Shown: in pieces, positions 12,715 to 35,255 of the stretch
Numbering within the stretch: the stretch's first letter is position 1
Layout of the letters: each line of letters starts with the position of its first letter
Assembly (NCBI GenBank): GCA_051004775.1
Contig: JBPCJZ010000084.1
Location: forward strand, 16,589 to 80,588
Length of the DNA stretch: 64,000 nt
Direction: 5' to 3'
Source of the DNA: Gemmatimonadota bacterium
GTDB lineage: Bacteria > Gemmatimonadota > Gemmatimonadetes > Palauibacterales > Palauibacteraceae
Program-made: the position numbers and the translations under genes
The notes under the pieces: generated by a model
Databases searched by the model: none
What the model was told of the DNA's origin: nothing
Seen by the model: the letters and a program-made list of their open reading frames with translations, nothing else

Positions 12715-12824
12715 GGCCGGCTGCATCTCCCTGCGGCAGTGGGTTCGGTGGCCGCCGGGGCCGCCGGGGGGGGAAGATGGGGGAGGCCGCGGACGCCGCA
12801 CAAGAGAAGCGATCCGGACGGGAC

Positions 12825-12846
12825 TGTCGGTGGGGTAGGCTAAGGT
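12825..12846 (+). promoter_or_regulatory. PafBC/RecA-NDp-type promoter TGTCGG-N10-TAAGGT
   Basis: TGTCGGTG-GGGTAGGC-TAAGGT matches the mycobacterial consensus TGTCRgtg-N8-TAnnnT; 33 nt upstream of the exonuclease ATG. Confidence 0.7.
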
Positions 12847-12879
12847 ATCTAGTGTGAATCAACGAACACGGAGAGGACA

Positions 12880-13629
12880 ATGAACCTGCTGGCATTCGAC
12901 ATCGAAGCGACGGGGCTCGACCCGTACGAGGACCGTATCCTGGAGCTCGCGGTGATCCGAGTCGAGGACGACGCTCTCGTCTTCCACGCGTTCTTCGACC
13001 CTGAGGGTCCGATCCCCGCCGATTCTACCGAGGTGCACGGCATTACGTCCGAGACCGTTCGCGGCTGCGCGACGTTCGCGTCCTGCGCCGCGGCGATCCA
13101 GCGCCTGGTCGACGGGGCGGTACTCGTCGGGTTCGTCTCCCGCCGCTACGACACCCTGCTGCTCGACGCAGAACTTCGCCGGGCAGAGCAGGCGGGCCTG
13201 GACCTGGACACCGTCGCGGAGATCGACCTGTACCGCGTGTGGCGCGAGGCGGAGCCGCGTAATCTCGGGTCCGCGGTGAAGCGATTTCTCGGCCGGAAGC
13301 ACGACATGGCGCACAAAGCCGTTCCCGACACCGCCGTGCTGCCTCCCCTGCTGCGCGAAATGGGCCGACTATTCGGCTACTCGATCGACGACATGGTTCG
13401 GATGAGCCGGCCGGTGGGCGAGGTCGACAGGTCCGGCCGTTTCTGCGTGGACGAGGAGACCGGGGAAGTGGTGTTCAACTTCGGCAGGCACCGGGAACAG
13501 CCGGTCCGCCTTCACGACGAGTATCTCGAGTGGATGCTCGGCGAACGTTTCCCGCCCGACACGAAAGCCGCGATCCGCGTGCTCCGGCGCAACGGCTTCT
13601 CGTGGGGGTCGGAGCGTTCGGCCGCCTGA
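12880..13629 (+). CDS. DEDDh 3'-5' exonuclease (DnaQ/Pol III epsilon-like) with ExoX-like C-terminal domain
   Basis: FDIEATG (ExoI), RYDTLLL (ExoII), HKAVPDT (ExoIII); C-terminal FNFGRH...EYLEWML; GGAGAGG RBS. Confidence 0.9.
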   Translation: MNLLAFDIEATGLDPYEDRILELAVIRVEDDALVFHAFFDPEGPIPADSTEVHGITSETVRGCATFASCAAAIQRLVDGAVLVGFVSRRYDTLLLDAELRRAEQAGLDLDTVAEIDLYRVWREAEPRNLGSAVKRFLGRKHDMAHKAVPDTAVLPPLLREMGRLFGYSIDDMVRMSRPVGEVDRSGRFCVDEETGEVVFNFGRHREQPVRLHDEYLEWMLGERFPPDTKAAIRVLRRNGFSWGSERSAA

Positions 13630-13691: not shown

Positions 13692-14972
13692 TCAGCGCGA
13701 GGCGATCGCGTCGATTCGCTCGCCCCGGAGCCACGCCAACGTCCCCCCGTCCAACGACGCGCGCTGAATGAACGTGTAGCGTCCGTCCTCCTCGTGGCGA
13801 AACTCGCCCGCGAAGGCGGCGCTGGCGTCGCCGATTGCCGGACCGCCCGGAGGTCCGCGAAGCTGCTCGAGAATTTCGTCCTCGCCGAGGCACATAGCGA
13901 TCAGCATCACCGGGACCTCCGCCGACCAGATGCGGCGGGCTCCCTCCACGTCGATACGCTCCTGGGTGCGGACATGGAGTCCGCCGCTTCGGTGGCAGCT
14001 CCGGTCTCGGTAGGGATCCGTTCCAGTACCCGTGCCCGGGTCGGGGCTCGCCAACGCCTTCAGCGACGACGCCAGGTAGACGGGGGCCGCGAAAGACTCG
14101 GCGGGCATCGGCGCCGAGGGCGCATGGTCTGTAGAGGTCGCCGGCATCTCCCAGGGCGAGTCTCCGGTCGCGCCGGTTCGCAGGAAGAAGGTGGCCACGG
14201 TCTGTCCCTCCCGGATGACCCGCATCCGGTAGGTCCCGGCATAGGGCAGCTCCGCCGTACGTATCCGCTCGTTCTCGGCCCGCTCGAAGGCCGCCGCCAG
14301 GATCCCCCACGCCGGATAGTCGTCCGCGGCGTCACCCGATTCGCGCCGCCAGGTGACAAGGTCGCTCACCGAGCCGTAGGGCCGCTGGGCCACCTCGTCG
14401 GGCGTCGGGAGCCGCTGGTAGAGGTCGAAGAGGTCCTCCGCGTCGAGCCGTCGCTGGCCCGAGCCGAGCGGATGCTCCCAGGGGCTGTTGGGGAATCCCT
14501 CCCACACGGCGAAGTATACGTCGAAGGTGGGGAATCCCCCCAGCCAGTCCTCCGACCGCCTCAACTCTCCGCGATAGAATCCTTCCGAGCCCGGCGGCGA
14601 CCAGGACCAGCTTCCGGTCCAGCGCATCGGTCGACAGTCATCGTCGAAACCCCACGGGACGAGTACGACGTGGCGATCGTCGCGGAGCGCGGCTTCGACA
14701 CGGTCTCCCGAAGCGCCTCCGACTCGGCGGACGTCGGCTACCTGTCCGAACGCCGGCTGTCCCGCGTCCGACAGGCCCGCGGGGATCGTATCCGGCAGCG
14801 GCGCGGCGACCAGCAGAGTCATCCCCGGTTGGCGCGCGCCCTCGCTGAACGGCGCCCCGCAGTCGGTCCCGGCTGGCCGGCCGGCCGGACTGGCGACGCC
14901 CGATGCGACCAGCGCCGCCGTGGCCGCGACGCCGATGGTGGCGAGGACGGGCGACGTTCGTGCCCCGGTCAC
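13692..14972 (-). CDS. Hypothetical exported protein (~426 aa)
   Basis: GTG 14972 overlaps the mscS stop (GTGA); signal-like N-terminus; globular composition; no recognised family. Confidence 0.7.
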   Translation of the reverse strand: MTGARTSPVLATIGVAATAALVASGVASPAGRPAGTDCGAPFSEGARQPGMTLLVAAPLPDTIPAGLSDAGQPAFGQVADVRRVGGASGDRVEAALRDDRHVVLVPWGFDDDCRPMRWTGSWSWSPPGSEGFYRGELRRSEDWLGGFPTFDVYFAVWEGFPNSPWEHPLGSGQRRLDAEDLFDLYQRLPTPDEVAQRPYGSVSDLVTWRRESGDAADDYPAWGILAAAFERAENERIRTAELPYAGTYRMRVIREGQTVATFFLRTGATGDSPWEMPATSTDHAPSAPMPAESFAAPVYLASSLKALASPDPGTGTGTDPYRDRSCHRSGGLHVRTQERIDVEGARRIWSAEVPVMLIAMCLGEDEILEQLRGPPGGPAIGDASAAFAGEFRHEEDGRYTFIQRASLDGGTLAWLRGERIDAIASR

Positions 14973-15928
14973 GTGCCCCCCGACGCCATCGCTTCCGCCG
15001 GCGCTTCGCGGCGGCCTGCGGTATGCAGGTGTACATCGCGCTGCGGGAAGGGAATGGTCACACCCTCCTGGTCGAACGTCAGCTTCACCTGCCGCAGGAT
15101 ATCCCAGCGGACCTCCCAGTAGTCGGCCGTGGCGCACCACGGGCGAACGATGAAGTCGACGGAGGAGTCGCCGAGATTCGACAGCTTGATGACGGGAGCC
15201 GGCTCGTCCAGCACCCCGGGGTGCTGTTCCACGATCCGGTGCAGGATGGCTTCCGCTTGCGGTATGTCGTCTCCGTAGCCGATCCCGAAGACCAGGTCGA
15301 TGCGGCGGATGCTCTCCGCGGTGATGTTCTTGATCACGTCACCCCAGATCTTGCCGTTCGGGATGATCATGCGCTGGTTGTCGAACGTGAGGAGCGTCGT
15401 CGTCACCAGGCTCATCCCGGCCACCTTCCCTGTCACGCCCGCGACCTCCACGGCATCGCCCACGTCGAACGGCGCGTAGGCGAGGATCATCGCGCCGGCT
15501 GCGAAGTTGGACAGGCTATCCTGCAGGGCGAAGCCCAGTACGAAGCCGGCGATGCCCAGGCCGGCGAGGACCGGGCCCAGGTGCACGCCGACGAGCGACA
15601 GCGCCACGACGAGGCCGAGGACCATGATGCCCTTGCCCGTCATGGAGACGAGCGTGTCCTCGAGTAATTGCGAGCTCCGTACGCTCCCATGCTCGGCCGC
15701 GCGGCGGACGACCCGCTTGGCCAGGCGGCCAAGTATCCAGAAGGCGAAGAGAGTTACAAGGACGATGGCCGCGCGCGAAACGAGCCACGGCCAGTGCTCG
15801 GAAATGAAACCCGGGAAGTCCCGGAGGAGTTGAGCCACGTCGGGCGTCGTCGCCGACGATCCCGCGGACGCCTCTTCCTGGGTCGCCACGAGTTGCAGCA
15901 GCGCCGACTGTAGCGCTGGTAGCGCCAT
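14969..15928 (-). CDS. mscS: Small-conductance mechanosensitive channel
   Basis: GFALQDSLSNFAAG, PFDVGDAVEV, IIPNGKI, RRIDLVFGIGY, IPFPQRDVH; start ATG 15928 with GGAGG RBS. Confidence 0.92.
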   Translation of the reverse strand: MALPALQSALLQLVATQEEASAGSSATTPDVAQLLRDFPGFISEHWPWLVSRAAIVLVTLFAFWILGRLAKRVVRRAAEHGSVRSSQLLEDTLVSMTGKGIMVLGLVVALSLVGVHLGPVLAGLGIAGFVLGFALQDSLSNFAAGAMILAYAPFDVGDAVEVAGVTGKVAGMSLVTTTLLTFDNQRMIIPNGKIWGDVIKNITAESIRRIDLVFGIGYGDDIPQAEAILHRIVEQHPGVLDEPAPVIKLSNLGDSSVDFIVRPWCATADYWEVRWDILRQVKLTFDQEGVTIPFPQRDVHLHTAGRREAPAEAMASGGT

Positions 15929-26463: not shown

Positions 26464-27627
26464 GTGCCGACCGACCGCATCAGCAAGGCGCAGCGTTGGC
26501 TCGACCTGATCGCCTACCTGCTCGGGCGGCGGCGTCCGGTTACCGTCGAGCAGATCTTCTCGGCTGTTCCCGCCTATCGCGAGGCCGCGGGTCCGGAAGG
26601 CGATCCGCTCCCCGCGTCGGTGCGCCGGATGTTCGAGCGTGACAAGGACGAGCTGCGGACCCTCGGCGTTCCGATCGAGACCGAACGCTTCACGATCAAC
26701 TACGGCACGGAGTTCGTCGACGGCTACGTGCTGCGTCCCGACGCGTTTTATCTGCCGTATCTGAAGCTGGTCGACGAAGCCGTCGTACCCGCCTCCCCGG
26801 AGACGTACGCCCGCGCGGCCGCCGCCGGGCATGCGGCGGGCCGCGACGCGTCCGGCGCGCCGAGCGCTCAGGAGTTCACTGCGGGGGAAGTCCAGCTTCT
26901 GCTCGGCGCCCTCCAGGAAGCCGCCGGCCTGCCGGATTCCCCGTTCACGGACGCGTCGAGTTCCGCCGCCCGCAAGCTGTCCTTCGACCTCGGCCCGGCC
27001 GATCGAACGGGCCCCGTTCGCGCGGAGGAGCCGGGCGGGTCGGAGCAGGCGGCGATGATCCGGCAGTTGAGCGAGGCCCTGCTCCGCCGCAAGCGAGTCG
27101 ACTTCCGGTACCACGGCATCCGCCGGGGCGAACCGACGGACCGGTCCGTGGCCCCGTACGGGCTCTTCATGGAACGGGGAGCCTGGTATCTCGTCGGGTT
27201 CGATGAACTGCGCGATGGGATTCGCGTGTTCCATGCGGGCCGGATGGAGGCGCCGCGCACAAACAGCCGCGCGCCCGCGACCGCCGACTACGCAATCCCC
27301 GACGACTTCGACCTCAGTTCCCATCGCGACCGGGAGGCGTGGCAGTTCGGCGAGGAAGACGAACCGGTGACGGCACGAGTGCGCTTCCAGGCTCCCCATG
27401 ACCGGTGGGCCGCGCGGAACGGCTACGGTGAGCCCGAAGAGACGGCCGGCCCCGCCGCGGGCCAGGCGGGCGGACACGCCTCGATTCGCCGCTTCACGGT
27501 GCGCGATCCGGGGCCCTTCTGCGATTGGATCCTTGGATTGCGGGGGGCGGCGGATATTCTCGAACCGCCCGAGCTGCGCGCGGAAGTCGGACGCCGCGCG
27601 CGGGCGATCGCGGAAGGTCATCGCTGA
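26464..27627 (+). CDS. WYL-domain transcriptional regulator, PafB-like
   Basis: N-terminal HTH SKAQRWLDLIAYLL...RRMFERDKDELRTLGVPI; WYL core VAPYGL...GAWYLVGFD...RVFHAGRM; WCX tail; GTG start 26464 estimated. Confidence 0.9.
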   Translation: MPTDRISKAQRWLDLIAYLLGRRRPVTVEQIFSAVPAYREAAGPEGDPLPASVRRMFERDKDELRTLGVPIETERFTINYGTEFVDGYVLRPDAFYLPYLKLVDEAVVPASPETYARAAAAGHAAGRDASGAPSAQEFTAGEVQLLLGALQEAAGLPDSPFTDASSSAARKLSFDLGPADRTGPVRAEEPGGSEQAAMIRQLSEALLRRKRVDFRYHGIRRGEPTDRSVAPYGLFMERGAWYLVGFDELRDGIRVFHAGRMEAPRTNSRAPATADYAIPDDFDLSSHRDREAWQFGEEDEPVTARVRFQAPHDRWAARNGYGEPEETAGPAAGQAGGHASIRRFTVRDPGPFCDWILGLRGAADILEPPELRAEVGRRARAIAEGHR

Positions 27628-28574
27628 TGGCCGGCTCCGCCGCGGACCAGCTCGCGCGCCTGCTCTACCTGCTTCCGGCGGCAGCCCGGGGCGGCCTCTC
27701 CACCCGCGAGGCGGCCGCGCGGCTGGAGGTCGACGAGGAGACCGTCCTGGCCGACCTCGCCGACGTCACGGCGCGGGAGTTCTACCATCCGGCGGGGGGC
27801 GCCGACGACGTCCGGGTCGAGATCGAAGCCGAACGCATCCACATCCGAGGAGAGAAGTTCATGCGACCCCCGCGCCTCAATGCGCGCGAGGCGCTGGCTG
27901 TGCACCTCGCCCTGCGTCGCCACGCGGCGGGGCTCGGCGGGGAGGCGCGCGCGGCCGTGCTCGAACTTGCGGAGCGCGTCGGCCGGATCCTCGCCTCGGA
28001 GAATACGGAGGAGGACGCTCGGCGCATCGCGCTCGAGGAGGAGGCCGTGGGGCTCCGGCTCGAGCTCCAGGCCGCCGCCAGCGAAGGCATCCGCTGCCGA
28101 ATGGTCTATCTGCGGCCAGGCGCGGAGGCGGAGACCGAGCGCACGCTCGATCCGTACGCGGTCGTCGGATCGCACGGCTCCTGGTTCGTGATCGGATTCA
28201 GCGACCCGCGCGGCGACGTGCAGGTGTTTCGTCTCGATCGCATCCTCGAACTGGAGGACACGGGCGAGCGTTTCGAACCGCCGTCCGACTTCGATACGGC
28301 GCCGTACGTGGAAGGCGGGCGGGTGTTCCGCGCGGAGACGACCCGCGAGGTCCGGGTGCGCTATCGCGGAACGGCGGCGGCGCGCATGCGGGAGTGGTAT
28401 CCGGCGGCGGAGAGCGTCGGCGAGGAGACGCTAGTGGTTTACGCAGTCGCCGACCCCGAGTGGATCGTCCGGCACGTCCTCGAGCACGGGGGAACGGCGG
28501 AGGTCGAGTCGCCGCCGGACGTGCGCGGACTCGTCGCGGAGGCCGCGGCGACTCTCGGTGGAGCGTATCCGTGA
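27627..28574 (+). CDS. WYL-domain transcriptional regulator, PafC-like
   Basis: QLARLLYLLP...EAAARLEVDEETVLADL HTH; LDPYAVV...SWFVIG...FRLDRI; ATG overlaps the pafB-like stop (TGATG). Confidence 0.9.
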   Translation: MAGSAADQLARLLYLLPAAARGGLSTREAAARLEVDEETVLADLADVTAREFYHPAGGADDVRVEIEAERIHIRGEKFMRPPRLNAREALAVHLALRRHAAGLGGEARAAVLELAERVGRILASENTEEDARRIALEEEAVGLRLELQAAASEGIRCRMVYLRPGAEAETERTLDPYAVVGSHGSWFVIGFSDPRGDVQVFRLDRILELEDTGERFEPPSDFDTAPYVEGGRVFRAETTREVRVRYRGTAAARMREWYPAAESVGEETLVVYAVADPEWIVRHVLEHGGTAEVESPPDVRGLVAEAAATLGGAYP

Positions 28575-28685
28575 AGCGGGGCTGACGGCGCCGAAACCAG
28601 CCACGGCGAGGTAGAAGTCCGGCGCGGCCGGACAGGGCCCACGCGGCGGGCCGAGCGGGGCTGTCGGCTCCACGCCCGCGGACCG

Positions 28686-28691
28686 TACTGT
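28686..28691 (+). promoter_or_regulatory. Candidate -10 (TACTGT) 5 nt before the addB ATG, possibly leaderless
   Basis: TANNNT directly before ATG 28697; no SD; TGTCGG 18 nt upstream. Confidence 0.35.
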
Positions 28692-28696
28692 GCCCC

Positions 28697-31600
28697 ATGC
28701 CGCTCCGAATCGTACGAGCTCCGACGAGTGCCGGGTTGTGGTCGGCCTGCATGGAAGGCTGGCTCGACGACCTGGGCCCGGCCACCGGACCGGGTCCGCA
28801 CGCCTCCCGCCTCTGGCTCGTCCACCGAACCCAGCGCGATGCCGCACTCTCCGCGTCGGTCGCTCGCGGCGTGCCCGGTTGGTTCGATCCACCCCTTCAC
28901 TTCCTCTCGGAGCTCGGCGAGTTGTTCGGCATTCAGCGTCGCCCGATCGGCATCCTCACCGGCCGCCTCCTGGTCGCCAGGCTCGCCCGCGACCACGGAA
29001 GACGCATCGGGCTGCGCGCGTCCTTCGGCGAAGAGGGTCCCGCCCGCTCTCACATGCTCGACGGACTGATCGGCGAGCTGCTGGCGGAGGGCGTCGCGCC
29101 CGCGGCGCTGCGCGAGAGCCTCGGGGGCCGTCCGAGCGACGAGTTCGGCCGCCTGCGCAACGCCTGGGTCTGTGACACGTACGCGGCCCTGCTGGACGCG
29201 CTCGCGCATCAGGGGCTGTACGACGCACGGCAGATCCACGCACTGGCCGCCGAGCGCATCGAGACGGGCGGGCTGAGCGTCGCTGTGCGGGGCGCACGCA
29301 CGCTCCACGTGTACGGCCTGAGTTCGCTCAGCCGCCGCGAACGCTTGTTTCGGGCGCTGGCCGCTCAGGCGTCGGTGGATGTCCGGGTATATCAGCTCGA
29401 CGAAGGCGAACCCTCGGAGTGGGACGATCTCCCCGGCGTGGCCGACTCGCCGGCCACTGTTGCGGACGCCGCGCCTCGCGCCGCCGCTGTGCCCGACGTC
29501 GCGCCCGTCGCGCCCGACACTGCCGAAAGCGAAGATCGCGCGGCGGGCGTCACGATCCGGCCCGCTCCCGACGCGGTACGCGAAGCCGCCTACGTGGCGC
29601 GCCGTGTGAAGCAGTTGCTCGCCGCGGGGGAGTGCCGCCCATCGGAAGTGGCGGTCGTCGCGCGTTCGGGCCGGGAGGATACGCGCAGGATCCATCGGGC
29701 CCTGGAAGACGCGGGCGTCCCCTCCTCCGCCCGGCTCCGTACGGTTCTGGCCCAGATTCCCGCACTGCGAGCGCTCCTCGACCTGTTCGGGGCGGAGGCC
29801 TCGGGTTGGGACTACGGCAGTCTGCGCACCGTGGGCACGAGTCCGTACTTCGCGATCGGCCTCGACGCGCGGCCGCTCGACTACCTCGCTTCCAAGCGAC
29901 GCATCGCCGGGCTCGCGAACTGGGAGGGGGCGCTGGCCGAGCTGGCCGAGGCCCTGGCTCACGATCGGGACCATCCGGAAGCGCGCCGCCTCCGCGGCCG
30001 CGGTATCGGTTCGGACCGCGTGGCGGCCGCCGCGCGTGGCGTAGCCAGGCTGCGGGAGCACGTCGCGGGTCTGGCCGGCCAGCGTGGGGAGTCGGACTGG
30101 ATCGATCTCACCCGGTCCTTCACCGCCGGCGGGGGCCTCGAATACCTGCGGCGAATTTGCCGGGTGGTCGGAGGACGCTACGATCTCGTCCGCCTGGATC
30201 AGCGTGGCGTGCGCGTGCTCGACTCCCTCCTTGCGGAATGGCGGGGTCTGCTCTCGACGTCCACGGGTCTGACGGCGGCCGACTGGCACGGCCGGCTTCG
30301 CCGGCTGCTCGAGGCGAACGAACTCGCGCTCTCGACGCCTTCGTACCATGGAGTCAAGATTCTCGAGGCGCACGAAGCCGCCCTGACACCGTTTCGCCAT
30401 GTCTTCGTCGTGCACGCCAACGACGGCGAGTTTCCGCGGACGCCGCGCGCGGCGGGCATCTTCACCGACGGAGAACGGGCCGCGCTGCGAGCCGCGGGTC
30501 TTCCTCTCGAGGACCGCACGACCGCACTGCGCCGCGAACGCTCCCTGTGGCGCGCCGTTACCGCGGGGGAGTCGGTGACGCTCACGTACCGGACGTCGAC
30601 CTCCGCCGGGGTGCCGCTGCTTCCGTCGCTCATGGTGCCCGACCACGAGGCGGAGAGCGCGCTGCCCCGCACGATCGTGCACGCCGATGATGATCTCGAG
30701 GCCGTCAGCCGGGCCGAGCAACTGCGCCTCGAGGTACTGCGTCTCGCCAGGAAGCGTCGCGGCGGCGAAGAGGGCAAGCTCGAAGTCGCCGACGTTCCCG
30801 CCGTCCGCCATGCCGTCCTCGGCGCCTTCGCCGAGGAGCTGCGCGCCGGCCGCCTGGACGACGTGGAATCGATCGAGCCCGGGCTAGGACTCGAACCGTC
30901 TCCCTTGCTCGGACGGGATCGTCCGCTGTCCCAGCGGTCCCATGCGTGGAACGGCCGCCTTCGGGACCCCGCACTGCTCCAAGTGATCGGGGAGCGATTC
31001 GGGCCGGAACACGTCTGGTCGGCGAGCCAGTTGCAGCAGTATGCGGTCCGCCCGTTCGATTTTCTGCTGGCCCGCGTGCTGCGCATCGAACTCCGCGAGG
31101 AGGCGGGGGAGGAGACGTCCCCGATGGCCTCGGGCAGCGTGGTTCACGCGGTGCTCGAGGCGCTCCACGGTCGCCTGCTGGGCGCGGACGAGGCCGGCTT
31201 CGCCGCGGGTCCTGCCCTGCTGGAGGAGGTGTCCCGCGACGTGTTCAAAAGGCTCGAGCGCGAGGCCGGACTCTGGCTCGGCCTGCCCGCCCTCTGGAAC
31301 CTGAAGCGTGCGCATCTGCGCGAGACCGTCCGCGGCTTCGTGACCTGGGACTTCGCCTGGCTAGCGAAGCGCTCGGCCCGGCCCGAGGCGGTGGAAGCGC
31401 GGTTCGGATCCGACGGCGCGGAGCCGGTGGAGATCACGGGCACCGACCTCGCCGGGCGAGCCGCCGCCCTGCGGCTTGCCGGCCGGATCGATCGCGTCGA
31501 TCGGGTCGGGCGTGCGGGCGATCGGCTGCGGATCGTGGACTACAAGCTCGGTGATCCCCCCGCGAGGAAGCGCTACGATGACGGAGCGCTGCTCCAGTCC

Positions 31601-31921
31601 GCCCTCTACTCGGCGGCGTGGGAGCGGCTGGGGAGCCGGCGACCGAGCGAGGCGCTGTTCCTCTCGATCCGCAGCCCCGGCAAGGGCTCGATGTCGGGTC
31701 TCAAAGACAGTGGCGTCGAGGACGTACTTCGATTTGCGTTGTCCATCCCGGCACGTGTGCGCGCCGGGCTGTTCGAACCGGTGCAGGCGGCCACCGCGCA
31801 CCCTGCCTCCGACTGGCAGCCCGGCCCCGAGATCACCCGCACGCAGTCCTGGATCACCGCCGGGCACCGCTTCGACAACCCGGCGGAGGGCGCCGCCCCG
31901 GGGAGCCCCGGCGATGAGTGA
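28697..31921 (+). CDS. addB: AddB/RexB-like subunit (inactive helicase domain + PD-(D/E)XK nuclease)
   Basis: EAAYVARRV, VAVVARS, HVFVVHANDGEFP; C-terminal SASQL, GSVVHAVLE, GRIDRVD, IVDYK, LQSALY; no intact Walker A. Confidence 0.85.
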   Translation: MPLRIVRAPTSAGLWSACMEGWLDDLGPATGPGPHASRLWLVHRTQRDAALSASVARGVPGWFDPPLHFLSELGELFGIQRRPIGILTGRLLVARLARDHGRRIGLRASFGEEGPARSHMLDGLIGELLAEGVAPAALRESLGGRPSDEFGRLRNAWVCDTYAALLDALAHQGLYDARQIHALAAERIETGGLSVAVRGARTLHVYGLSSLSRRERLFRALAAQASVDVRVYQLDEGEPSEWDDLPGVADSPATVADAAPRAAAVPDVAPVAPDTAESEDRAAGVTIRPAPDAVREAAYVARRVKQLLAAGECRPSEVAVVARSGREDTRRIHRALEDAGVPSSARLRTVLAQIPALRALLDLFGAEASGWDYGSLRTVGTSPYFAIGLDARPLDYLASKRRIAGLANWEGALAELAEALAHDRDHPEARRLRGRGIGSDRVAAAARGVARLREHVAGLAGQRGESDWIDLTRSFTAGGGLEYLRRICRVVGGRYDLVRLDQRGVRVLDSLLAEWRGLLSTSTGLTAADWHGRLRRLLEANELALSTPSYHGVKILEAHEAALTPFRHVFVVHANDGEFPRTPRAAGIFTDGERAALRAAGLPLEDRTTALRRERSLWRAVTAGESVTLTYRTSTSAGVPLLPSLMVPDHEAESALPRTIVHADDDLEAVSRAEQLRLEVLRLARKRRGGEEGKLEVADVPAVRHAVLGAFAEELRAGRLDDVESIEPGLGLEPSPLLGRDRPLSQRSHAWNGRLRDPALLQVIGERFGPEHVWSASQLQQYAVRPFDFLLARVLRIELREEAGEETSPMASGSVVHAVLEALHGRLLGADEAGFAAGPALLEEVSRDVFKRLEREAGLWLGLPALWNLKRAHLRETVRGFVTWDFAWLAKRSARPEAVEARFGSDGAEPVEITGTDLAGRAAALRLAGRIDRVDRVGRAGDRLRIVDYKLGDPPARKRYDDGALLQSALYSAAWERLGSRRPSEALFLSIRSPGKGSMSGLKDSGVEDVLRFALSIPARVRAGLFEPVQAATAHPASDWQPGPEITRTQSWITAGHRFDNPAEGAAPGSPGDE

Positions 31922-34900
31922 GTTCCGGTGGACCCCCGAGCAGGTCCGCGTCCTGCTCGATCGGGAGAATGGCCTGCTCGCGGCGAGCGCCGGAACGGGG
32001 AAGACCCGGACGATCGTCGGGAAGATCGGCTGGCTGCTTGGAATCGACGTCGGGCCGGGCCCCGACGGACTGCCGATTCCCCCGCCCCCGGCTCCGTGTT
32101 CGCTCGATCAGATTGCCGCGATCACCTTCACCGAGAAGGCCGCCTCGGAACTGAAAGACCGCCTGCGGGACATCGTGGAGGGCTCCGACCGAGCAGCCGA
32201 ACTCCGCTGGGAACTCGACCGCGCGTCCGTGGGCACCATTCATGGTTTCTGCGCCGGACTGCTGCGCGAGCACGCACTGCGGCTCGACATCGATCCGACC
32301 TTCCGGGTGCTCGATGATCGCGAAGCGACGCTCCGTCTGCACGAGATCATTCGAGCCGTCGTCCTGCGGGCCGTCGAGGAGGGTGGGGACGCGATCGGGA
32401 ACCTGCTCGACCGCTTCCAGCTCTACGACGGCAACTACCGCACGGGCCTCGTCGGGGTCGTGGATTCCGCCGTCCGGGACCTTCGCTGGCACGCGCACGC
32501 GTACGACGACTGGGTGATCGATCGATCGAGTGCTGCCGAGCCCGCGGCGCTCGATCTCGATCGGCTCCGGGCGATCGCCGCCGAGCGACTTTCCGGCGCC
32601 GTCATGGACGCCGGAGACGAGGCGGCGCTCGAACTCGCCGACGCCCTGTACGGCCTCGCGCATCGGGCGGTGGCCGACTGGCTGCGGTGGATGGAGGAGG
32701 AGAACGTCCGGGACTTCGACAGCCTCATCCTCGACGCACGCCGCCTCCTGACGCGCCCCGAACACCGGTCGGCCCTGGAGTCTATCCGTGCGGGGCTTCG
32801 CATCCTGATCATCGACGAGTTCCAGGACACGGACGCCGCGCAGCGCGACATCGCGTTCGCGCTCGCGGGGATCGGAGATCCGGATCCCGGTCCCGTACCC
32901 CAGCTGCTGGTCGTCGGCGATCCGAAGCAGAGCATCTACGGATTCCGGGGTGCGGACGTGCGCGTGTGGAACGACGTGCGCCGACGGTTGTGCGGGGACC
33001 GGCCGCCCATGCGGCTGACCGAGAACTTCCGCAGTCAGCCCGGCCTGGTCGAGTTCATCAACGAGGTGGCAGAGGCCGCGATCGAGAACGCGGGCGACGC
33101 GTCGAAGGAGCACGATCGGGATCTGTACATTCCCTACACGCCGCTCCAGGCGTACCGGTCCGAAGCGCCCGGCCAGGGTGTCGACTGGCTCGACTGCACG
33201 GTCGAAGGCGGCACCCGTTCGGATCGGGCCGCGCTGGAGGCCCGACTCGTCGCGTCCAGGGTCCGTTCGCTCCTCGACGGGGAGAAACTGAGGGATCCCC
33301 GCACCCTCGAGCTCCGTGGCGTCGAAGCGCGGGATATCGCGATCCTGGCCCGGACGCGTCGCGCGCTCGACGAAGTGGACGAGGCCCTGCGCGAAGCCGG
33401 GATCCGGGTATACAACGCCGCCCGCCTCGGCCTGTCGAACCGGGCGGAAGTGCTCGACCTCGTCACCACGCTCCGGCTGCTCGCGGACCCCGAGGACGAC
33501 TACCACGCCTGCGCCTGGCTGAGATCTCCGCTCGTGGGCCTGCGCGACGAGGTAGTGGTGCGCTTTCGCCTGGATCGCGGGGCGCGGCCGGGTGCCCTGC
33601 TGCGACAGGCGCGCCGCCACATCGAACGCTGCGAGAGCGGAGACGCTTCGTGGTTCGAGGCGCCCGAGCATCCGGAGGTAGCCGGCATCGAGCGCGAGGC
33701 TCTCAGTCGCGGCCTCGACGCGCTGGCGGAAGCCCAGGCCCTCGTCGATCGCGCCCCCGCATCGGAACTGCTCGAAGACATCGTGCGCCGGACCGGATAC
33801 CGCCTCCATCTGCTCCTGCGTCCCGGTGCCGAGGAGTCCCTCGCGGCAATGGAGCGATTCTCCGCCTTACTCGACGAGTATCGGCACCTTCCAGTCGGGA
33901 CGTTCCTCGCGCTGTGGGACCGCTGGGGCGATCAGGATCTCGGGATTCCGCAGGCGCCGTTGTTCAGCGCCGCTGACGACGTCGTGACGCTCCAGACGAT
34001 CCACACGGCGAAGGGCCTGGAATGGCCGATCGTGTTTCTCCTGCGCGCGGGCGACGGGAGTACCGACCGCTTGAAGGATTCCTACGTGTCGGACCCTCGA
34101 CTCGGCCCTGCGCTGCTGCCGAAGGCCTCCGAGCGAGGGGCACGGGCGGGCGCCATCGCCGAGCGCGTCCTGGCCGCGGAACGGGCGGAAGAATCCAGGC
34201 TTCTCTACGTCGCGCTCACTCGCGCGGCCGACCGGATCGTCGTCTCCGCCCACGATGTCGACGCGGGGTACATGGAGTTTCTGCGGCCGGCCCTGCGCGA
34301 CGCTGTGCCGCCCCACCTCGTCGCCGCCGACGGAGGTCCTCGGCCAGGCCGGAAGGCCGCACGCGCGGCGCGCGTCGACGATCCAGCCAGCCGGACGGGA
34401 AGCCAGATCGAAGTGTTCGATCCGGACGGGACGGGACAGATGGACCTGTTCCTCAATCGTCGGCCGGGCGGCGAGCCCCCGGAGGCGGCCGAAGGCCTTC
34501 GGCGCGTCGTCTACCGGACGCCCGATCCGGGGCAGGGTTCACTCACGCCGCTCCCGGTCACCCTGGACTGGCTCGACGCGCTCGTGCCGGGCCCGGTGGA
34601 CGGCCTCGCGCGGCCGATCGAGGTTCCCACCGAGAGGCCCGTCACCTCGGCGACGGAACTGCAGCTCCGCGCGGCCGATCCCGCTGCCTGGCGCCTCCGC
34701 TACGTACACGCCGTCGAAGAAGCATGGCGGTTCGCTCCGACAGGCGCGGCGACCGGGATTCCCGCGACGCTTCGCGGCACCTTGATCCACGGGGTGCTGG
34801 AGCGGATTCGAGCGATCGACGACCTCGCCGACGTCCTGGACGAGACGATCGCGGGGCTGGATGCACCCCCCGGCGTGGAGGAACAGCTCCGGCCCGGCGC

Positions 34901-35255
34901 CGAGTATCGATTGGCACTCGAGACGGAAATCGCCCGCGTCGTGAAGGGCGAGGAGTGGCAATGGTACGTCGAGGGCGAGCACTCCCGTGAACTTCGCTTC
35001 CTGGTCCTCGACACGCCCGGACCCTGGATCACAGGGGCCCTCGACCTGTACCGCGCCACGCCCGAGCCGTGGGTCATCGACTTCAAGACGCATCGGATCG
35101 GCGCGGCGGAGATTCCGGCGGTAGCGGAGGAGTATCGCATCCAGGCCGACGTGTATCGGGGGGCCGTGGCGGCCCTGAGCGGTCGCGCGCCGGGCGTCCG
35201 CTTGCACTTCACGCACCCCAACGTCGCCACCGACCTGTCCCGGCCCCGCGACTGA
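31914..35255 (+). CDS. addA: AddA-like UvrD helicase-nuclease
   Basis: ASAGTGKT, ITFTEKAA, TIHGFC, DEFQDT, GDPKQSIYGFRG, ENFRS, TIHTAKGLEW, RLLYVALTRA; nuclease GTLIH, GALDL, IDFKT; ATG 31914 overlaps the addB end by 8 nt. Confidence 0.92.
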   Translation: MSEFRWTPEQVRVLLDRENGLLAASAGTGKTRTIVGKIGWLLGIDVGPGPDGLPIPPPPAPCSLDQIAAITFTEKAASELKDRLRDIVEGSDRAAELRWELDRASVGTIHGFCAGLLREHALRLDIDPTFRVLDDREATLRLHEIIRAVVLRAVEEGGDAIGNLLDRFQLYDGNYRTGLVGVVDSAVRDLRWHAHAYDDWVIDRSSAAEPAALDLDRLRAIAAERLSGAVMDAGDEAALELADALYGLAHRAVADWLRWMEEENVRDFDSLILDARRLLTRPEHRSALESIRAGLRILIIDEFQDTDAAQRDIAFALAGIGDPDPGPVPQLLVVGDPKQSIYGFRGADVRVWNDVRRRLCGDRPPMRLTENFRSQPGLVEFINEVAEAAIENAGDASKEHDRDLYIPYTPLQAYRSEAPGQGVDWLDCTVEGGTRSDRAALEARLVASRVRSLLDGEKLRDPRTLELRGVEARDIAILARTRRALDEVDEALREAGIRVYNAARLGLSNRAEVLDLVTTLRLLADPEDDYHACAWLRSPLVGLRDEVVVRFRLDRGARPGALLRQARRHIERCESGDASWFEAPEHPEVAGIEREALSRGLDALAEAQALVDRAPASELLEDIVRRTGYRLHLLLRPGAEESLAAMERFSALLDEYRHLPVGTFLALWDRWGDQDLGIPQAPLFSAADDVVTLQTIHTAKGLEWPIVFLLRAGDGSTDRLKDSYVSDPRLGPALLPKASERGARAGAIAERVLAAERAEESRLLYVALTRAADRIVVSAHDVDAGYMEFLRPALRDAVPPHLVAADGGPRPGRKAARAARVDDPASRTGSQIEVFDPDGTGQMDLFLNRRPGGEPPEAAEGLRRVVYRTPDPGQGSLTPLPVTLDWLDALVPGPVDGLARPIEVPTERPVTSATELQLRAADPAAWRLRYVHAVEEAWRFAPTGAATGIPATLRGTLIHGVLERIRAIDDLADVLDETIAGLDAPPGVEEQLRPGAEYRLALETEIARVVKGEEWQWYVEGEHSRELRFLVLDTPGPWITGALDLYRATPEPWVIDFKTHRIGAAEIPAVAEEYRIQADVYRGAVAALSGRAPGVRLHFTHPNVATDLSRPRD

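Follow-up and report, generated by a model that had tools for sequence, protein, structure and literature searches.

Is the PafBC switch, which the searchable literature treats as mycobacterial or actinobacterial, also at work in the Gemmatimonadota? The question arises from a 64,000-nt stretch of a Gemmatimonadota assembly (hereafter, the window), for which a first-pass annotation made from the letters alone had reported the arrangement TGTCGG-N10-TAnnnT at 12825-12846 of the forward strand, 33 nt before a DnaQ-like exonuclease gene, had noted a PafB/PafC-like pair in the same window, and had proposed that the cis-element and its mechanism extend beyond Actinobacteria. Our search of the literature found no paper connecting PafBC with Gemmatimonadota. 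From comparisons within this genome and across the phylum, we consider it likely that 12825-12846 is a damage promoter of the PafBC type, independent of LexA and operating through sigma adaptation (coordinates of all features are listed in Table 1).

The sequence and a PF00929 match to the downstream gene agree with this initial description. TGTCGG and TAAGGT are separated by a 10-nt spacer (TGGGGTAGGC), and 33 nt lie between the end of the motif and the exonuclease ATG at 12880. The site also agrees with an extended published form of the motif, TGTCRGTG-N8-TANNNT. At the -35 position (12818-12823), the sequence ACGGGA is unlike TTGACA, such that this is a promoter without a -35 box, and the upstream neighbor is a divergent small membrane ORF, making the region from ~12716 to 12879 a true intergenic promoter region. 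The consensus of PafBC promoters is given as tGTCgg(N10)tA(N3)T (PMC8635444). When both strands of the whole window are searched, TGTCGG-N10-TANNNT has a single match, in line with the earlier scan by eye of the intergenic regions, and the 0.1 to 0.2 chance matches per window that had been estimated were about right: dinucleotide-preserving shuffles expect 0.08 matches per window, and 7 of 100 shuffles contain at least one, so that the lone match is, as a matter of chance, only mildly unlikely. No matches were returned by an Rfam search of the window.

Table 1. Features of the window discussed in the text, with the basis of each assignment
Feature	Coordinates	Strand	Basis
Candidate PafBC-type promoter motif, TGTCGG-N10-TAAGGT (full sequence TGTCGGTGGGGTAGGCTAAGGT)	12825..12846	+	Sequence read; in register in 9/11 orthologous promoters
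"-26 element" TGTCGG, presumed contact of the PafB-like HTH	12825..12830	+	Information-content peak; GTC-reading residues of PafB kept
-10 hexamer TAAGGT (TAnnnT)	12841..12846	+	Sequence read and anchored alignment
Predicted transcription start	12852..12854	+	Usual distance of 6-8 nt past the -10 box
Ribosome-binding site GGAGAGGA	12870..12877	+	Sequence read
DEDDh (DnaQ/RNase T-like) 3'-5' exonuclease gene, 249 aa, putatively regulated	12880..13629	+	Domain profiles
pafB-like gene, GTG start, 387 aa; wHTH, WYL, WCX	26464..27627	+	Pfam WYL and WCX; start-corrected; PDB alignment
pafC-like gene, 315 aa; HTH_PafC, WYL, WCX	27627..28574	+	Pfam; start-corrected; PDB alignment
addB-like and addA-like helicase-nuclease genes	28697..35255	+	Directly 3' of pafBC; context

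The gene behind the motif encodes an exonuclease domain in roughly its first 160 residues (PF00929 at 4.4e-18, NCBIfam DnaQ-type/DEDD models, and the PADLOC DEDDh model), with the catalytic DxE, D, and H-x4-D motifs all intact; the C-terminal ~90 aa have no domain match. Each of the seven other genus members has an orthologue, as do three additional genera within the family, and, among the 41 genomes searched, all 11 orthologues are confined to genomes that encode a PafB-like protein. The upstream regions of 9 of the 11 orthologues, from the genus and one other genus, contain TGTC(R)N-N10-TAnnnT at an equal distance to the start codon (one of these nine with CATGAT as its -10 box), and this motif is the sole conserved part of the upstream region. 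An anchored alignment of eight exonuclease promoters makes the same point at single-base level: information is high only at TGTC, at positions 5 to 7, and at TAnnnT, whereas the N10 spacer, the flanks, and the -35 position are all near zero. The motif is absent from the distant orthologues (47 to 50% identity). One relative, G011, has the contiguous gene order pafB-pafC-exonuclease, with TGTCAC-N10-TATGAT between pafC and the exonuclease gene. Convergent with the exonuclease gene in the window is a 482-aa ORF (13692-15140, reverse strand) that has no Pfam, NCBIfam, or PADLOC match.

The presence of a PafB/PafC-like pair in the window was upheld by Pfam domains and by alignment to the Mycobacterium smegmatis proteins. 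The N-terminal HTH domain of the PafB-like protein aligns to M. smegmatis PafB (7p5x_AY and 9fnd_X; E 4e-19, phmmer against PDB), and the PafC-like protein aligns over its full length (residues 6-310) to M. smegmatis PafC (7p5x_AX; E 1e-7, phmmer against PDB), as well as to the C-terminal half of 6sj9, the fused PafBC of A. aurescens. The start of the pafC-like gene overlaps the stop of the pafB-like gene by 1 nt, and a WYL-domain search of the assembly found only two WYL proteins in the genome, which are these adjacent two. Judged by such alignments, the pair are genuine relatives of PafB and PafC. Residues that touch DNA in the known system can also be followed. According to cryo-EM work (PMC8635444), PafB R46 and R50 read the guanines of GTC, a triplet that is strictly conserved, and the recognition helix is RMFERDKDELRTLGVPIET in the PafB-like protein and RMFERDKNELRDLGIPLET in M. 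smegmatis, with RMFERDK identical; from the aligned helices, both arginines are kept. In the form RR[MKTAN]FERDK, this segment is present in all 15 of the Gemmatimonadota PafB-like proteins examined. Binding of single-stranded DNA (ssDNA) requires R181, Y196, R204, R208, R211, and R214 of PafB and R201 and R204 of PafC (PMC11804915), of which seven of eight are conserved here (PafB R181, Y196, R204, R208, and R214; PafC R201 and R204), the remaining one, PafB R211, being His in this genome.

The pafBC pair is flanked by a ypfJ-like peptidase gene on one side and by addBA on the other. The pafB-like gene of the window begins 36 nt past ypfJ, and no TGTC-type site lies ahead of it. The addB promoter (window 28670-28699) reads CTGTCGG-N18-TACTGT-N5-ATG, a leaderless geometry, and TGTCGT-N18-TA[CA]TGT is conserved at addB in G003 and G004; we do not count it among the PafBC-type promoters, since its TGTCGG is spaced by N18 instead of N10, but it may represent a separate, PafBC-related promoter class.

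Elsewhere in the assembly (2.36 Mb in 198 contigs, 68% G+C, estimated to be 79% complete), the slightly relaxed pattern TGTCRG-N10-TANNNT has six matches, three within genes and three intergenic. The three intergenic matches precede the exonuclease gene, an sbcD/sbcC-like operon (an SbcD/Mre11-like phosphoesterase, then an SbcC-like ATPase), and an imuA-imuB-dnaE2 cassette (ImuA-like, ImuB-like, one further unannotated gene, and a DnaE2-type polymerase); SbcD and ImuA are family-level assignments, because their NCBIfam scores are below the curated cut-offs. Enrichment at repair genes had been proposed as a check in the first pass: all three intergenic strict matches are placed in this way, as are sites at recA and ssb in two lineages independent of the window (G215 and G257, see below), which supports the proposal, but uvrA, uvrB, and ruvB of this genome have no site upstream. 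The same is true of recN, uvrD, and dnaE. Such gaps at uvrA, uvrB, ruvB, recN, and uvrD imply a regulon much smaller than the ~150 genes of mycobacteria. The recA gene is missing from this 79%-complete assembly.

Two further observations concern this set of promoters. Our position-weight-matrix scan yielded a candidate on C36 (11576-11597, reverse strand), TGTCGGACCCCTGCGCCATGTT, with CATGTT as its -10 box, 45 nt ahead of a gene for an 801-aa vWA-domain protein; it is closely like the exonuclease sites of the relatives and is a possible further regulon member. In addition, sbcD promoters of the genus (in this genome, C71:3850-3892) have a second conserved element, CTGTCC[CG], 13 nt upstream of TGTCGG, which may represent either an additional contact or another site.

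The number of matches itself carries no argument. We dropped motif-count enrichment after finding that TGTC-N12-TANNNT at spacer 10 is not commoner than at spacers 6-15 or than other tetramers, and reversed-pattern controls in the relatives give totals similar to those of the motif; as counts are unenriched, the case rests on position, conservation, and gene context. Unenriched totals, together with a single window match of the sort seen in 7 of 100 shuffles, are what might be expected if 12825-12846 were an ordinary weak housekeeping promoter whose TGTCGG is a chance or lineage-inherited spacer with no regulatory role. We hold this to be very unlikely: the -26 hexamer has been conserved while its flanks and the N10 spacer diverged, the promoter has no -35 box, and the hexamer recurs in the same register at non-homologous repair promoters both here and in other families.

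Across the 41 genomes searched (this one, G000, and 40 relatives), 16 encode a PafB-like protein, and motif presence tracks PafB presence. The sbcD promoter contains the motif in 8 of 11 PafB-positive genomes versus 0 of 8 PafB-negative genomes (Fisher p = 0.003; p = 0.055 when counted by genus), an association whose statistics are weakened by shared ancestry. Regarding the PafB-positive genomes without the sbcD motif, the gene is operon-internal in G009 and G015, its upstream region is cut at a contig end in G001, and G010 has no motif; PafB-negative G018 retains a homologous sbcD promoter, in which TGCCGC replaces TGTCGG. Every genus member with imuA (six genomes) keeps the imuA site (TGTCAG; CGTCGG in G002), which is not conserved outside the genus. 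As a control, we scanned four PafB-negative genomes from this family; strict matches there precede genes for PTS-IIA-like, gcvH, mlaE-like, and secreted proteins, with one repair-gene exception, addB in G018, which is preceded by TGTCGG-N10-TATGTT.

This distribution bears on the possibility that some other factor (for example, an unrelated activator or an alternative sigma factor) reads the promoter, sharing the TGTC/-10 geometry and co-occurring with the pair by chance, while the WYL pair controls something else, such as only addBA. Room for such a factor is left by the facts that PafBC-like binding at the site is something that we infer, that the addB promoter right beside pafBC has TGTCGG at N18 and not at N10, and that G018, with no detectable PafB, still has the motif before addB. 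However, the recognition helix of the PafB-like protein is nearly the same as one structurally shown to read GTC at this exact spacing (PMC8635444), the -10 box TAnnnT is of the housekeeping type, motif loss follows the absence of PafB, and the genome has no WYL proteins beyond the pair, all of which make another factor unlikely. With PafB and PafC as the putative readers, the proposed extension of the cis-element beyond Actinobacteria gains credence: the host belongs to Gemmatimonadota, the pair is genuine by alignment, and the motif is both conserved and linked to PafB. Because this Gemmatimonadota host also has true PafB and PafC genes, the PafBC switch is probably not confined to Actinobacteria, and the locus most likely represents a new phylum for a known mechanism.

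The genome also encodes LexA (C120:12405-13004, reverse strand), whose candidate box is a direct repeat, TTCGG-N6-TTCGG, with two copies in the lexA promoter. The same repeat lies just 3' of the imuA -10 box in both families and occurs, as the reverse complement CCGAACAAATTGCGAAAG, over the recA -35 box in this family. (It can also be read as TTTCG-N7-GTTCGG, resembling the alphaproteobacterial GTTC-N7-GTTC type.) With LexA present and a conserved box at imuA and recA, the exonuclease promoter might itself be under LexA/SOS control, its TGTCGG forming part of a repressor operator; yet the box found at lexA, imuA, and recA is absent from the exonuclease promoter region (12716-12879), and the TGTC element is neither palindromic nor a repeat, leaving a LexA operator at this site extremely improbable.

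In this family, GTC[AG][GC]AG occurs in PafBC register at recA in 9 of 11 PafB-positive versus 0 of 6 PafB-negative genomes; since the LexA-type box begins right beside the G of GTC, we count this result as supporting only. We likewise down-weighted recA as evidence, because its conserved block consists mainly of this LexA-type box, which matches the imuA box in reverse complement.

Beyond this family, 83 of 301 Gemmatimonadota genomes (28%), distributed over 47 of 127 genera, have the PafC-type HTH (PF19187); of the control organisms named, only C. glutamicum and B. subtilis were positive. The recA gene is preceded by TGTCGGACCGAGGCCTTATCTT in G215 (family f5) and by TGTCCGAGGAGCATGCTAGAGT in G257 (family f9). 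When these two genomes were scanned with the motif, additional sites appeared ahead of ssb (PF00436), rmuC (PF02646), a DUF488 gene, and the pafB-like gene of G257, so that motif sites are at recA, ssb, and rmuC in G215 and at recA and the pafB-like gene in G257. In most genomes of families f3, f4, and f6 that are positive for the PafC domain, recA has a LexA-type box only and no motif. The site ahead of the pafB-like gene in G257 (contig C98) is TGTCCGCAGCCACAGGTATGAT, which suggests autoregulation in that lineage.

Taken as a PafBC-type promoter, the site can be fitted to a specific scheme modeled on mycobacterial PafBC, within which binding, activation by ssDNA, sigma contact, transcription start, and damage induction are steps that we infer. 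The PafB/PafC-like WYL heterodimer, whose genes lie 13.6 kb downstream, would activate the exonuclease promoter, rendering it damage-inducible and LexA-independent, in four steps: (i) DNA damage would produce ssDNA, to be bound by the WYL domains; (ii) the PafB-like HTH would read the GTC of TGTCGG, centered near -26; (iii) the PafC-like HTH would replace the contact that region 4 of the housekeeping sigma normally makes at -35, which is missing here; and (iv) sigma would read the -10 box TAAGGT, with transcription predicted to start near 12852-12854. Promoters of this type may likewise serve the sbcD/sbcC-like operon and imuA-imuB-dnaE2 in the present genome, and recA, ssb, rmuC, and pafB itself in other Gemmatimonadota.

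Comparison with actinobacterial PafBC (PMC8635444, PMC6789036, PMC11804915) reveals both a common core and several departures. Shared features are the two tandem, translationally coupled HTH-WYL-WCX paralogues, the identical GTC-reading RMFERDK and conserved ssDNA-binding arginines, a non-palindromic -26 hexamer at exactly N10 from a TAnnnT -10 box with no -35, putative DNA-repair targets (recA and ssb in some lineages), and coexistence with a LexA system. The departures, apart from the phylum itself, begin with genomic setting: there is no pafA, dop, or proteasome, and pafBC resides between ypfJ and addBA, outside any Pup-proteasome locus, the setting that the literature describes for PafBC. 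A search for Pup_ligase (PF03136) gave no hit in this genome and was positive in 0 of the 16 family genomes examined, with the control, C. glutamicum, positive. Moreover, the regulon is apparently small, at 3 to 6 promoters per genome versus ~150 genes; position 7 of the motif prefers A (TGTCRGA(C/G)C); PafB R211 is His; and the HTH-WYL linker of PafB is longer (387 aa, versus 331 aa, for the protein).

Two other damage-response systems invite comparison. DriD of Caulobacter crescentus (PMC9186387, PMC13004042) is likewise a WYL-WCX, ssDNA-sensing activator of a LexA-independent damage response, functions that we propose for the present pair by analogy with mycobacterial PafBC; however, DriD is the homodimeric product of a single gene and has a palindromic site, whereas the pair described here consists of two distinct subunits and its putative site is an asymmetric hexamer at a fixed spacing from the -10 box. 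Like the proposed system, LexA/SOS controls damage-inducible repair genes, and at imuA, and probably also at recA, it overlaps with the PafBC-type element; LexA, however, represses through an operator of its own (in this lineage, the candidate TTCGG-N6-TTCGG direct repeat), and the exonuclease promoter has no such operator.

That a conserved PafB/PafC pair, matching the known system in its DNA-reading residues and -26/-10 promoter geometry, occurs in a Gram-negative phylum without pupylation suggests that the mechanism is independent of the Pup-proteasome locus and possibly of actinobacterial RNA polymerase (RNAP) accessories. We tentatively extend this to a broader view, in which PafBC-type sigma adaptation may be a free-standing, widespread bacterial damage-response module that is not tied to the Pup-proteasome and that, in Gemmatimonadota, could form a two-tier network with LexA, the imuA and recA promoters combining a -26 element with a LexA direct-repeat operator. 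If that were true, the mechanism would work without RbpA and CarD, the actinobacteria-specific RNAP partners used in published PafBC assays. The motif would also offer a simple signature by which LexA-independent damage regulons of uncultured lineages could be predicted from sequence, and the compact core regulon that it predicts (the DEDDh exonuclease, an SbcCD-like nuclease, ImuA-ImuB-DnaE2, and, in some lineages, recA, ssb, and rmuC) lends itself to comparison with the ~150-gene regulon of mycobacteria.

Some additional observations from the promoter scans are recorded here. Strict matches also precede a gene for an ARPP-1 family protein (PF20208; G019:C2:22917) and, on G004:C119, a gene for a protein of the glyoxalase/bleomycin-resistance fold. 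In the sister family f2, most members of which are without PafB, recA has a distinct conserved promoter, GTTGATAATCGTTTGAGC-N9-TAG[TG]GT, containing the 12-mer CTAGTGTGAATC; this same 12-mer occurs at 12849-12860 of the window, right after the -10 box of the exonuclease promoter.
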